Source: an uncultured Poribacteria bacterium (GTDB taxonomy: Bacteria; Poribacteria; WGA-4E; WGA-3G). From it: a stretch of 64,000 nt of DNA. The notes under the pieces are model-generated. The model worked only from the letters and a program-made list of their open reading frames with translations. It was not told the origin of the DNA and did not search any database. Positions 4,441-64,000 of the stretch are shown piece after piece (position 1 is the first letter of the stretch; the number at the start of each line of letters is the position of its first letter). The translations under genes were made by a program, and so were the position numbers. The stretch covers positions 2,496,001 to 2,560,000 of the forward strand of contig OX638351.1 of the NCBI GenBank assembly GCA_951813565.1, given 5' to 3'.

Positions 4441-4605
4441 GTAGTCGTGCAATTCATTGCGAAACTTTCTTGTAGGAGGGGTTTTCAACTCCGCAGCGTG
4501 CCACACGCGCACGCTGTGTTGATTTGGACAAATGCCATACGGTATGAGGCGTTGATTTCGATACAATCACTACATCGGGCTTGCAAAGCCCTCCCACAAG
4601 AGAGA
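4441..4605. repeat. Composite REP cluster with two nested micro-elements
   Basis: GTAGTCGTGCAATTCATTGCG; GTAGGAGGGGTTTTCAACTCCG interrupted by units ending GTTGATTT(GG); inverted TCGGGCTTGCAAAGCCCTCCCAC. Confidence 0.75.
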
Positions 4606-12348: not shown

Positions 12349-12506
12349 TATAGTGGATTTTACAATAAACTGGACATCTGAGCTGTGAATCAACGCCAAT
12401 GCGCGTTTGGCGAGAGGGAACTCCGATTCCCGACTAACAATGGTTTCGTCGCGATTCGGAGATCGCTCCTACAGAATATATGAACTTATTTACATAATTT
12501 CCTATA
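12349..12506. repeat. MITE-like/REP composite
   Basis: TATAG...CTATA ends, inverted REP pair, truncated AATCAACG unit at 12388. Confidence 0.45.
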
Positions 12507-13691: not shown

Positions 13692-13745
13692 AACGGCGTA
13701 ACTCCAAATATTGACCATTATTTCTTTGCTTCACTATAAAATAAC

Positions 13746-14086
13746 TTGAGTTGAGAATAAGCCGGATTCTGTATATGATGATCATTCATCTGGGATCAAT
13801 GTTGCCATTAACCTCAAGCGGTTACCCGGGACGAGGCGGGCACACCTCTAAATGTCCACATTTTACCTTGCTCCAGATGGGGTTTACCAGCTCCATAAGT
13901 CACCTCATGGACTGGTGCGCTTTTACCGCACCGTTTCACCTGTACAACGTTTTTACGCGTTGTAGTCTACTTTCTGTTGCACTTTCCATAGCGTTGCCGC
14001 TCCTGGGGGTTACCCAGCACCCTTGCCCTGCGGAGTCCGGACTTTCCTCATCCCGAATACGGGACGCGACCATCTACTCAACTCAA
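13746..14086 (-). ncRNA. rnpB: RNase P RNA
   Basis: Minus strand has GAGGAAAGTCCGGACTCC near 5' end and ACAGAATCCGGCTTA near 3' end; terminal P1 GAGTTGAG/CTCAACTC. Confidence 0.97.
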
Positions 14087-31685: not shown

Positions 31686-32097
31686 CTCATAAATGTAAAC
31701 TTAAGAAAACAATGCTGGCTTATCTCTTGTGGGAGGGCTTTCTAAGCCCGATTTTGTGAGACTCAAGTTTTTAAATCCAAATCAACGGTATGAATTCCAT
31801 TTAGGCATTCCCCGTATGGCATTCATCCAAATCAACGCAGCATGCGCGTTTGGCATGCTGCCAAATCAACGCCAAATGCGCTTTTTGGCATTTGGCGGGT
31901 TTTCAACCCGATAAATACATATAAATCGGGCTTATAAAGCCCTCCCACAAGAGGCAATCTGGTAATTGTGTGCTTAAATTGACGCCTATGGGCGGGGTCT
32001 CTGTGCCCCGCCACTGCACAGGACGTGCCATGCAACGGGCAGGCACCAAATCAACGGTCCGAATGCCTTTTGGTATTCCCCGGAGACCCGCCCCTAC
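31686..32097. mobile_element. MITE/REP composite with four CCAAATCAACG micro-elements
   Basis: Imperfect TIR CTCATAAATGTAAACTTAAG / CTTAAATTGACGCCTATGGG; inverted REP pairs; units at 31777, 31827, 31861, 32046. Confidence 0.7.
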
Positions 32098-43455: not shown

Positions 43456-43490
43456 GAGTACATCATTACAAGACGCGCAATTCGCTTATG

Positions 43491-43570
43491 AATTCCCTAC
43501 GCTGGCATGACCCAGATCAGGTTCAAAGGGTGTTTTCTCAGCTCTTAAATAGATAAGAGCACCCCATAAC
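43491..43570 (-). promoter_or_regulatory. TPP riboswitch
   Basis: GGGGTGC...GCTGAGAAAACACCCTTTGAACCTGATCTGGGTCATGCCAGCGTAGGGAA upstream of thi genes. Confidence 0.96.
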
Positions 43571-43640
43571 ATCATTTTATTATTATACCATATTCTCCAT
43601 CTTTAAAAAAGCAAATTTTGGAAACACAACAATTTTTCGT

Positions 43641-45303: not shown

Positions 45304-45624
45304 GAGGGGTGTGAATAAATATTTGGCGCATCAACACAGACAAGGACAGACGCCAGGTGCCGCTTGATTTATAGAAATGCGTTTGTAGTCGCGCAATTCA
45401 TTGCCAAATCAACGCAGCATGCGCCAAATCAAGAAATCAACGGTATGAATCATGGCGAATGCCATACGCGCATTCGTCTTTAGGCATTCACCGGGTATGA
45501 ATGCCTTATGGCATTCACCGTGTGGCATGCTGCGCCTCTTTGAACTTGTGGACGGAAACCCACGGCGTGTGCGGACTACCTTTAAGCACATATTTAACAT
45601 CGAAATTATTTATGCACACCCCTC
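45304..45624. mobile_element. MITE with nested REP and micro-elements
   Basis: TIR GAGGGGTGTGAATAAATA/TATTTATGCACACCCCTC; AGTTAATT duplicated at 45296-45303 and 45625-45632. Confidence 0.82.
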
Positions 45625-52436: not shown

Positions 52437-53612
52437 ATGGCTATATATTCAAAACGCTTAAACCGGCTACCGCCATACATGTTCGGCAAACTCAAACAGT
52501 TGACGCATGAACGGCGGCAACAAGGAATAGATATTATTGATTTGGGGATGGGAAATCCAAATCAACCGACCCCACAACCCATTATTGATAAACTAACAGA
52601 AGCGGCGCAAGAACTCCGAAACCACCGTTATTCCGCATCTCGTGGTATCTACAATTTGCGGAGAGAAGTTAGTTGGCACTATGAACGCCGATTCGGTGTA
52701 GACATTGATCCGAATGAGGAAGCTATTGCTGTCATTGGAACTAAAGAAGGGCTTGGACATCTCGCTTTAGCCCTGCTTGACGACGGTGATTTAGCGATGG
52801 TGCCCAACCCAACATTCCCTATTCACATGTATAGCGTTGTTCTTGCAGGTGGAAGCGTCGTTAGCATTCCGCTCTCTGAGGAAAACGATTTCGTTCCTTC
52901 TCTTGCAGAAATTACACGTGATATATGGCCGAGACCGAAGGTGTTGATATTGAGTTTCCCACACAATCCGACCGGTGCAGTGGTAGGGTTAGATTTCTTT
53001 GAAGAAGTAGTCCAGTTTGCTAAACAACAAGATATACTGGTAATTCACGATCTGGCTTATGCGGATATCGTTTTTGACGGATATAAAGCACCAAGTTTCT
53101 TGCAGGCAAAAGGCGCGAAAGATGTTGGCGTTGAATTTATATCCCTCTCCAAATCGTATAACATGGCTGGATGGCGATGTGGGTTTGCTGCCGGAAACCG
53201 TGATATTATTGAGGCACTTGCCCGAATTAAAGGATATTACGATTACGGAATTTTTCCACCTATTCAGATTGCTGCAATTATGGCACTGCGGACACCTGAA
53301 GATGTGGTTATGGAAAATGCAGACGTTTATTGGAAACGCCGCGATGTGCTTGTTGACGGGTTAAACCGAATCGGTTGGAAAGTGTCAAAACCACAAGCCT
53401 CAATGTTTGTCTGGGCACCGATCCCGGAAGCATGGAAACATCTCAATTCTTTGGACTTTTCAATGAAACTTCTGAATGAAGCAGAGGTTTGTGTATCTCC
53501 GGGTGCTGGGTTTGGACACAACGGTGAAGGTTATATCCGCATCGCTCTTGTGGAAAATGAGGATCGGATTCGTCAGGCGGTGCGCCAAATTCGGAAGGCG
53601 TTGTTCAACTGA
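52437..53612 (+). CDS. Class I/II aminotransferase (AlaC/DapL-like)
   Basis: [35 protein letters not shown]. Confidence 0.92.
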
Positions 53613-57418: not shown

Positions 57419-58738
57419 TTATGTCCCTTCAATGAAACGCGATCGTGATGCCTTTATATAACGGCTCTGTACGTTGAGACTAACATCATTAAAATCTACG
57501 GGCCACTCACCGTAAGTCCCCGCTTCATCTAAATCAACGCTGTCAACCTCGGTAATACCTTCTTTGTTCCGTGAGAACCAGTGTAACTTGACCAAATCCG
57601 GCGAGAGTTTCCCTTCTGCTACGAGCGTTTGAATCCCTAAAAGTAGTAGCGAGCTGTGTGTTTCAGCGACGACGCGCACACCACGTTTCGCTGCATCTGC
57701 TAAGACTTGTGCCAATGCCACTTGTGCATTAGGGTGGAGGTGTAACTCTGGCTGTTCAAGGTATACCAACTGCCCTGGCTCCGCAGCAATAAGTGCAACT
57801 AAAACAGGTAGGACTTGAGATACACCGTAGCCAACATCAGCTATATTAACCATGTCTGTTTCGTCAGTGCTGGTGTGAGGGAGGCGCCCAACTTTGACTT
57901 CAATACCAATGTCTCCGATTCTTTCAGTAGCAACTTTACCAGTCAATTCAAGTGTATGTAGGGCATTTGTAACCGTTTTCAGACGTTCATCTGCCGTTTC
58001 TTGCCATTTGTGAATGACACTTGCCGCGTAGTCTTCAAACGTGCCGGGATACCGAGAACCTATGCTTGTCAGTCCGTAGATGTGTTCAGGAGTGTCGCGT
58101 AATCCTGGAAGATGGATAGTTTTGAGAATATCAGACTCAGGATCACTGATGAGTTTAACAGTAGTATCAAGATTTAAGTGCTTAGAATCACCTTGAGATG
58201 CTAAACGTAAAAAACAGCGTGAACGTTTTACCCTATTTACACCCGCAATTTTAAGAGACCCATATTGATTGACCAATGCCTTGATTTCTTCAGGAGGCAT
58301 ATCAGGAAATAATATAAGATGCTCAGGAAACACTGATGGATCAACTCCTGATTTTCCTTTACTCGTCATTTTAACAATTTCGATCCCCTCCGTCCCTCTT
58401 CTGAAAGTTACTTCAACGATGTGAGAAAAGTTTGATATACTCGTGCCAATCCCAATCTTAAAGCGGTCTGTACTTTTCTTGTCGATCAACGTGGACAAAA
58501 ATTGTGCTGCTTCGGTAAATTGGACATTCGGTCCACCAATTAACAACGGCCCTGGATCATAGGGTGCCTCCAGAGTCTGCTTCAGCAGCAGCAGCGGCTG
58601 CATAATGCTGGATTTCCCTGAACTGTTCGCACCAGCAAGGATCGTTAATGGACGGATGTCAATTTCACACTCCTCCGCTATTGACTTAAAACCCTTTACA
58701 GCTATCTTGGTAATGCCTGAGATATTTTCTTCTGGCAT
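57419..58738 (-). CDS. ABC-type (AAA_15/AAA_21, DUF3696-like) ATPase
   Basis: GFKS, GANSSGKS, DVGYGVSQVLP, YLEQPELHLHP, ETHS. Confidence 0.88.
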   Translation of the reverse strand: MPEENISGITKIAVKGFKSIAEECEIDIRPLTILAGANSSGKSSIMQPLLLLKQTLEAPYDPGPLLIGGPNVQFTEAAQFLSTLIDKKSTDRFKIGIGTSISNFSHIVEVTFRRGTEGIEIVKMTSKGKSGVDPSVFPEHLILFPDMPPEEIKALVNQYGSLKIAGVNRVKRSRCFLRLASQGDSKHLNLDTTVKLISDPESDILKTIHLPGLRDTPEHIYGLTSIGSRYPGTFEDYAASVIHKWQETADERLKTVTNALHTLELTGKVATERIGDIGIEVKVGRLPHTSTDETDMVNIADVGYGVSQVLPVLVALIAAEPGQLVYLEQPELHLHPNAQVALAQVLADAAKRGVRVVAETHSSLLLLGIQTLVAEGKLSPDLVKLHWFSRNKEGITEVDSVDLDEAGTYGEWPVDFNDVSLNVQSRYIKASRSRFIEGT

Positions 58739-63828: not shown

Positions 63829-64000
63829 CCCTTATGTGTCAATTTAGCGATGATTTTCTTGTGGGAGGGCTTTGAAAGCCCGATTTTTGAGACTCAAACC
63901 GTTATATCGGGTTGAAAACCCACAGCATGCCATACGCGCATGCTGCGTTGATTTGGCCAAATGCCAAAAAACGCATTTGGCGTTGATTCACTCCACAAGA
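63829..64000. mobile_element. MITE/REP composite (partial) with two micro-elements
   Basis: End CCCTTATGTGTCAATTTAG resembles the 31686-31992 termini; same REP pair; units at 63923-63956 and 63957-63988. Confidence 0.7.

Follow-up and report, generated by a model that had tools for sequence, protein, structure and literature searches.

How repeats of only 20-40 nt spread is a long-standing open question. To our knowledge, no enzyme is known for the small dispersed repeats (SDRs) of cyanobacteria, nor for the REPs of the CGTC class. SDR5, among the SDRs of Elhai et al. from 2008, is said to insert precisely within the palindrome HIP1. The non-autonomous derivatives of IS200/IS605 elements are called PATEs, members of the IS110 family also target REPs, and an integron attC site is defined by an R'' box paired with a GTT-bearing R' box, together with an integron integrase. 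The family of units analyzed here, found in an uncultured host, makes this question accessible to gene profiling and oligonucleotide assays: its junctions number in the hundreds, its stems covary, its copy number ranges from 0 to 449 over dozens of genomes, and filled/empty pairs are available.

The window, that is, the whole stretch of 64,000 nt that was analyzed, corresponds to C1:2496001-2560000 of a Ca. Poribacteria genome of 5.43 Mb (G000). An earlier note had described in it about ten hairpin units that share a fixed head and lie inside REPs. These units are there, and far above chance: the window has 10 matches to the head CCAAATCAACG with no more than one mismatch against 1.87 expected, a number that none of 100 shuffles reached. 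Six of the matches are exact (31777, 31827, 31861, 32046 and 45404 on the plus strand; 63946-63956 on the minus strand) and another two are one-mismatch units on the minus strand (4517-4527 and 4550-4560). The other two lie at 52557, where no unit hairpin is known, and at 57529, where inspection found none behind the head. When the search was extended to the whole genome, as the note had proposed, CCAAATCAACG was found in 519 exact copies, grouped in 302 clusters, against 2.7 copies expected from base composition, and the reversed string in 4. A broader head pattern yields 975 heads in 596 clusters. Only 76 of 655 strand-clusters overlap mechanically called ORFs, many of which are spurious, so the units are mainly extragenic; units also stand inside frames resembling transposase or other real genes (candidate genes at G000:C1:3913160 and 4511629).

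Beyond this genome, a pattern for one of the two unit types defined below, type A, matched at least 112 stretches in species genomes; among the 80 listed, 79 belong to Ca. Poribacteria and one to an unclassified bacterium. Viral contigs searched with the same pattern gave no match, and Rfam gave none at the units. In a phylum sample of 121 genomes, a looser pattern is present in 74 of the 81 genomes that belong to the same family. Outside this family it was found in 3 of 39 genomes, once in each, and these three matches are not unit-like. The counts vary from 3 to 449 units per genome across the genus and from 0 to 449 across the family, and the unit is nearly restricted to this one family of bacteria, which live in sponges. 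Our results indicate that the unit is real, very small mobile DNA that has spread by hundreds into other repeats.

A unit measures 33-37 nt and is composed of the tag AATCAA, a hairpin with CG at both feet, and a variable leader of 0-3 bases. Type A has a 10-bp stem and a loop of 7-8 bases, and type B has an internal loop and a top loop of 4-5 bases. The exact tag is present in 197 of 212 hairpins that were collected without requiring it. In a set of 672 simple units, which includes a few chance hairpins, the bases at positions -3 to -1 of the tag are CCA in 363, GTG in 105, AGA in 41, GCG in 30, GGG in 26 and ATA in 20, other leaders being fewer. Of the head described earlier, AATCAA(CG) is the part that the units share; CCAAATCAACG as such is not fixed, CCA being merely the commonest leader. 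The stem arms are paired, as had been reported, and covary, with a length of 10 bp rather than 7, the CG of the head pairing with the CG behind the unit. Among CCA-headed units without a further head directly behind them, CG comes next in 134 of 152 of type A and in 111 of 117 of type B. The covariance analysis was made on an alignment of 40 units taken from many genomes, 33 of them distinct. Both sides have changed in 6 of the 10 stem pairs, and 93% of the cells are paired, a level reached by 0 of 500 shuffles. The pattern used to select these sequences constrains part of the stem, and the sequences share ancestry; the covariation therefore shows that pairing is maintained and not what causes it.

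Which of the two strands is the working one is not told apart by their folding energies, which are equal within noise. In type-A stems, mismatches on the tag strand are A-C in 45 cases and G-T in 19 (p=0.0016), in single- and multi-context arms alike. This hints, if modestly, that the strand which folds or is single-stranded is the opposite one, in which case the tag would lie 3' of the hairpin; in type-B stems the corresponding numbers are 7 and 8. The orientation of the units is unbiased with respect to gene strand (166 against 189, p=0.24) and to the halves defined by GC skew (285/272 against 49/49, the skew itself being weak). Hairpins with the tag on both strands were also observed (G000:C1:502438, 1460149-1460187 and 4309389-4309427), and probably arose when inverted units recombined and the intervening host DNA was lost.

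The array at 31777 begins with a type-B unit (31777..31812, plus strand; CCA leader, AATCAA tag, internal-loop hairpin, closing CG at 31813-31814), followed on the same strand by a 14-base orphan right half of a type-A unit (31813..31826), a tandem type-A unit of 34 nt (31827..31860) and a type-A unit of 35 nt that, with its closing CG at 31896-31897, extends over 31861..31897 and has a perfect 10-bp stem (DNA fold of -11.9 kcal/mol). The host REP flank on the left (31725..31776, plus strand) is of a different site type from the one on the right (31898..31950, plus strand), which is typical of G-leader arrays. The earlier note held that removing the units restores intact palindromes. At 31777 this is not the case: after in-silico excision the orphan half-unit stays, and the reconstructed empty site for 31777-31895 has 0 occurrences in the genome, whereas empty copies of the two parental junctions number 38 and 30. 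Because of the leftover half-unit and of a junction that is absent while its parents occur, the locus looks chimeric or recombinant. The orphan arrangement is found at 4 places in the genome, and we infer that the loop of a type-A unit formerly took a type-B unit and that the left half was lost via recombination between two heads. The doublet 31827-31895 has 32 near-copies in the genome.

A type-B unit of 35 nt plus closing CG is located in the loop of a GTAG-type REP at 32046..32082 (plus strand). Its reconstructed empty site likewise has 0 occurrences; in this family, 62 of 63 empty copies have A at the insertion base. At 45404 the expectation of an intact palindrome holds, the reconstructed empty site occurring 128 times in the genome. 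This locus is a nested stack (45404..45534, plus strand; tags at 45407, 45427 and 45435) in which an outer type-A unit occupies the stem of a REP and type-B units are nested in the loop of that unit and in a tag; the stack has been copied as a block, with 5 near-copies of the whole and 16 of the inner 97 nt. On the minus strand, a type-A unit with a two-sided stem change and CA after the tag (4492..4527) stands in tandem with a degenerate type-A unit (4528..4559), and a type-A unit that closes in TG instead of CG (63921..63956) stands next to a G-leader type-A unit, the first of a tandem pair (63957..63990). An internally deleted G-leader unit occupies the GTAG-tag position of a REP at 12385..12412 (plus strand). 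The heads listed in the note are thus at their places, except that two of the units (12388 and 63957-63990) have a G-leader and that the head at 45424 ends in AAG. The window also contains a 14-base motif with 86 genome copies (31973..31986, minus strand), which is not part of the unit and is probably the terminal repeat of a separate MITE-like element; a variant of it has 31 copies, and units also insert exactly at the motif edge. RNase P RNA and a TPP riboswitch are found at 13743-14085 and 43477-43576 (minus strand).

Throughout the genome, 316 units are solitary; they represent 153 contexts and about 58 host-site types, the latter number being derived from a loose clustering in which some types were merged. 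With regard to the 519 CCA heads, 299 come after host or other DNA, 158 in tandem after another unit, and 62 are nested in the loop of a unit. The inspected sites are nearly all GTAG-type REPs, in either strand, and the units lie in their stems, their loops and the GTAG tag itself; among the loci listed, these host REPs are the flanking repeats of the RAYT genes of the genus. The unit enters REPs, the loops and tags of other units, and its own flank, which bears out the idea of a very small, non-autonomous element that takes REPs and its own copies as targets and leaves no target duplication. One site type may hold several stem types, which would reflect either repeated insertion or exchange between units.

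The junctions define one precise end, at the closing CG of the hairpin, and one variable end, with 0-3 leader bases and 0-2 target bases lost on entry. The right junction is CG, then mostly G. The proposal of a clean insertion before a CG of the target applies to part of the sites. For CCA-leader units, an exact clean empty copy exists elsewhere for 21 of 87 distinct contexts and another 7 have only a copy with A for G; no copy with the CG removed was found (0 of 87), and the remainder are unmatched. For G-leader units, a clean empty paralogue was found for 0 of 87 contexts; 12 match only after an A-to-G change, 14 only with a two-base leader between G and G, and 61 are unmatched. In REP families that have A at the empty site (for example, 103 of 109, 98 of 103 and 21 of 21 copies), the filled copies still end in CG (49 of 53 and 25 of 25). 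In addition, the two-base leader is coupled to the base that precedes it: in the distinct contexts of all DNA examined, CA follows C in 106 of 125 cases, TG follows G in 59 of 71, and GA follows A in 12 of 19.

To compare filled and empty sites between genomes, we used 80-390 kb per genome from six relatives; the counts are directed, and some loci are counted twice. Of 284 directed cluster comparisons, 86 were anchored on both sides. Most differences between relatives are loss or gain of the host repeat plus the unit, with 52 comparisons lacking both together; 16 have the unit in common, 15 are otherwise rearranged, and 3 differ by one unit. One of these 3 is a tandem copy-number change, and two are orthologous filled/empty pairs, filled in G014 and empty in G017 with a net difference of 36 bases. 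Both pairs stand at the same position of one REP family and are one site type. The empty sites of G017 have no CG; one target A is replaced, the leader is GA, and there is no duplication. The closing CG is therefore part of the element, which does not require one in the target. With respect to polarity, the matches of other genomes stop before the host repeat, and the filled allele of this site type is also present in other relatives, so that conversion or loss may account for the pairs. From these comparisons, later spread takes place mostly as cargo of the host repeats, and arrays vary in copy number by local recombination.

Within the species, no polymorphism was seen at the two places compared. 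In another assembly (L368), the array at 31777 is unchanged. Thirteen of 18 listed sequencing runs contain the stretch, and none is RNA; contigs of 4 runs were compared with L233, another 18.5-kb region of G000 chosen for its 9 unit clusters, and bridged one unit in a unique context, which is filled in 4 of 4, the contigs having broken at repeats. The joints listed for L233 are short and probably come from paralogous repeats. For the sites of the window, orthologues were sought in 19 loci of relatives (about 72-82% identical), where the intergenic DNA after the upstream gene is unrelated.

We propose, as the most likely of the readings considered though short of probable, that a trans-acting HUH (Y1, RAYT-like) tyrosine nuclease moves the unit as a non-autonomous, single-strand tag-plus-hairpin micro-element. 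The unit works like a REP with a different tag (AATCAA-CG), and it has the anatomy of an HUH substrate: the tag lies unpaired on the 5' side of a hairpin, and terminal inverted repeats and target duplication are both lacking. The nuclease would bind the folded unit in trans, would cut and join precisely at the CG foot, and would attach the other end, with less precision, to REP DNA that is single-stranded or extruded; it may have been lost from some lineages. In one group-3 REP system, as outlined in the relevant section of PMC8266576, the last two tag bases choose the complementary cut dinucleotide; with this rule, AACG would give a cut between C and G, the precise end of the element. Excision and integration at alternative sites and trimming of the 3'-OH, proposed as sources of BIME variation in the corresponding part of PMC3333891, would fit the variable leaders and the lost bases. 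Against an HUH enzyme, the replacement of target bases and the CG-free targets are unlike a clean HUH exchange, no cognate gene was found, the strand hint and the unbiased orientation do not favor it, and the two orthologous pairs, being one site type, could be gene conversion or loss. A related and rather doubtful version is that the unit represents a third REP-like tag class and a minimal hyperparasite, in which the 33-nt unit would still move on its own as a single-stranded dumbbell whose CG end is joined to nicks in other repeats by an undescribed HUH-type or other strand-transfer enzyme.

The search for the moving enzyme yielded 10 Y1 matches in G000, five IS200/605 tnpA genes and five genes flanked by REP-like repeats, two of the latter with internal stops; 2 of 4 proteins scanned passed the cut-off of NF047646 (REP-associated transposase). 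RAYT genes are located, among other places, at C1:242089 and C1:5070893. Among the loci listed (57 examined), no Y1 gene has the unit as its own repeat: the RAYTs carry their own GTAG-type REP each, and any unit there is an insert. Of the 43 ORFs with units on both sides, none is a Y1 gene of G000, and a search of this genome with a profile built from 41 Y1 proteins brought up no further Y1 locus. Across the genus, Y1 genes are present in 36 of 40 genomes, including the nine richest in units among those counted. Four genomes (G001, G010, G023 and G024) gave no Y1 match, a RAYT alignment having also been tried; the first three, which are 92-97% complete, have 72, 97 and 131 units, respectively. 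The RAYT/HUH mobilization that the earlier note suggested may occur, RAYT genes being present in the genome, but among the loci listed none has the unit as its own repeat, and four unit-bearing genomes gave no Y1 match. Several RAYT subfamilies exist in the genus, each with its own REP type and including longer ones of about 213 aa (L199-L252 and L006-L010 among the loci listed). In G009:C1 (for example, L251) a Y1 gene occurs in about nine copies, with a two-frame split in each, and this genome has only 7 units.

The unit does not appear to be an internal part of a larger IS end: the IS200/605 ends read by eye at 5 tnpA and 8 of 26 tnpB loci all differ from it, and a self-BLAST that covered about 4.35 Mb of queries placed no unit at the ends of a large multi-copy gene family. 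IS110 has 0 matches in G000; an IS91-type search also gave 0, its control being equally silent and the result thus uninformative. The three resolvase matches of G000 were read as IS607-like and have left ends unrelated to the unit. Ku was found in 0 of 40 genus genomes. Cas1 is present in 29 of 40 and missing from the unit-rich G006, G017, G048 and G016, and 18 of 40 have a reverse transcriptase (PF00078) match, which four of the five unit-richest genomes counted lack. Several enzyme classes are thus excluded as the cognate mover, and no cognate enzyme was found; IS110, reverse transcriptase, Ku and Cas1 track the unit counts worse than Y1 genes do. This survey also brought out IS607-like elements with overlapping resolvase/tnpB-like frames (G000:C1:2156592, 3270073 and 1649059), a reverse transcriptase gene with a long insertion that adjoins cas1 near a CRISPR-like array (G000:C1:3988991-3991842), with split matches resembling it in several relatives, and a stand-alone reverse transcriptase-like gene of 511 aa (G000:C1:811749-813284), which we guess is probably of a defense-associated class. 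The sole PF00589 match of G000 is a 207-aa tyrosine recombinase reduced to its catalytic domain (4771354-4771977 of C1, minus strand; kin at L273, L275, L276 and other loci), and no full-length XerC/XerD match was found in this genome.

The same observations can be read without a dedicated enzyme. Polymerase template switching or gene conversion might copy units into REP DNA that is nicked or stalled, with a match of one or a few bases serving as primer and host RAYTs only nicking and carrying the filled repeats; we consider this possible though doubtful. It would account for the coupling of the leader to the preceding base, for target bases that are replaced instead of preserved, for the 52 of 86 anchored comparisons that lose host and unit together and the array that changed in copy number, and for the chimeric locus, half-units and block-copied stacks of the window, and it agrees with the fact that no cognate enzyme was found. 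However, it leaves unexplained the near-invariant six-base tag and a precise CG end at about 58 site types without homology to the unit, and the TG-after-G coupling is partly the host's own GTAG tag. That an RNA serves as template we regard as unlikely. The opposite strand would be a small RNA (hairpin, UUGAUU and 0-3 variable bases) reverse-transcribed onto a nick with one-base priming, as suggested by the one-base-coupled variable leader, by the wobble-type mismatches of type A that favor the opposite strand, and by the RNA-mediated conversion reportedly proposed for cyanobacterial SDRs. Nevertheless, G049, G006, G017 and G048, with 449, 339, 291 and 282 units, have no PF00078 match, the unit counts do not differ significantly with or without a reverse transcriptase (p=0.58), and there is neither a gene-strand bias nor an Rfam match.

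An old entry, in which the unit came into each REP family once or a few times, has no present self-mobility and owes its copies to host-repeat amplification and exchange between units, seems slightly less likely still. The bridged site that is filled in 4 of 4 runs, the unchanged array of L368, the 16 of 86 comparisons with a shared unit, and REP-insert polymorphisms numbering only 2, of one site type that is filled elsewhere too, all point in that direction; dozens of single-context insertions with near-perfect stems, site types that differ between genomes and counts from 3 to 449 within the genus point away from it. We give the least credit, as an improbable mover, to a tyrosine recombinase acting on a folded single strand in the manner of an integron integrase, for which the conserved catalytic-domain-only enzyme of about 205 aa would be the candidate. 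It is the only PF00589 match of G000, it occurs in about 28 of 40 genus genomes by our reading of match ranges, units are somewhat more numerous where it is present (median of 124 versus 72, p=0.08), and the AATCAA tag presumably resembles the R'' box of attC. Yet the gene is missing from G023, G005, G050 and G010, which have 131, 109, 99 and 97 units, no unit lies beside it, the unit is shorter than a two-subunit site, and the junctions are not conservative. If some protein does join one end of a 33-nt hairpin precisely and causes no target duplication, this would set the lower size limit of mobile DNA, and the protein could serve as a small insertion tool.

Compared with the GTAG REPs, BIMEs and REPINs with their RAYT (TnpA-REP), as these are presented in the pertinent parts of PMC8266576 and PMC3333891 (see also PMC3116915), the unit is likewise a 20-40-nt extragenic hairpin with an unpaired tag at one foot (33-37 nt, 975 heads), and it shares with them hundreds of copies, tandem arrays, no coding capacity and lineage-wide persistence. 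Unlike them, it carries AATCAA-CG and no GTAG at its 5' foot (197 of 212 hairpins), no unit-flanked cognate RAYT was found among the loci listed, and it inserts into REPs and into itself with one end exactly at the hairpin foot. The CGTC REPs, including Neisseria dRS3 and Rickettsia RPE-4/6, are also tagged, without a dedicated transposase and with CCA beside the hairpin, according to the relevant portion of PMC3733652. The unit differs from what is described there in lacking the CGTC tag, in having a 10-bp stem closed by CG instead of one of 8-9 bp that starts with AT, in the position of CCA (5' of the tag as one of several leaders, versus a 3' tail), and in forming head-to-tail arrays and nested stacks, not head-to-head dimers.

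Like the SDRs of Nostocaceae, as far as the sections of PMC4390886 and PMC5861425 on them go, the unit is a very small mobile repeat of one lineage; unlike them, it belongs to another phylum and targets many REP sites instead of one octamer. Insertion at its recurrent sites is precise, with about 58 site types in all and 0-2 bases lost. The ends of IS200/IS605 and their non-autonomous derivatives share with the unit hairpin tops of the GCC-TTTA-GGC kind and the lack of target duplication, whereas the unit has a single hairpin, and the left and right ends of the IS605 elements of G000 differ from it in sequence and flank. The REP-targeting IS1397 and ISKpn1, the subject of papers cited in PMC3333891, also use REPs as insertion sites, but they are kilobase-sized and encode a transposase. 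A MITE is not indicated, given asymmetric ends and orthologous pairs with a one-base replacement and no duplication; nor is an integron attC, given a right junction of CG, then mostly G, without the pairing of R'' with a GTT-bearing R' box, and the 207-aa enzyme as the only recombinase. The literature searched, which took in few subscription papers and no supplements, contains no description of an AATCAA-CG element. The present analysis contributes the CG-free filled/empty pairs, the coupling between leader and target, and the exclusion of several enzyme classes.
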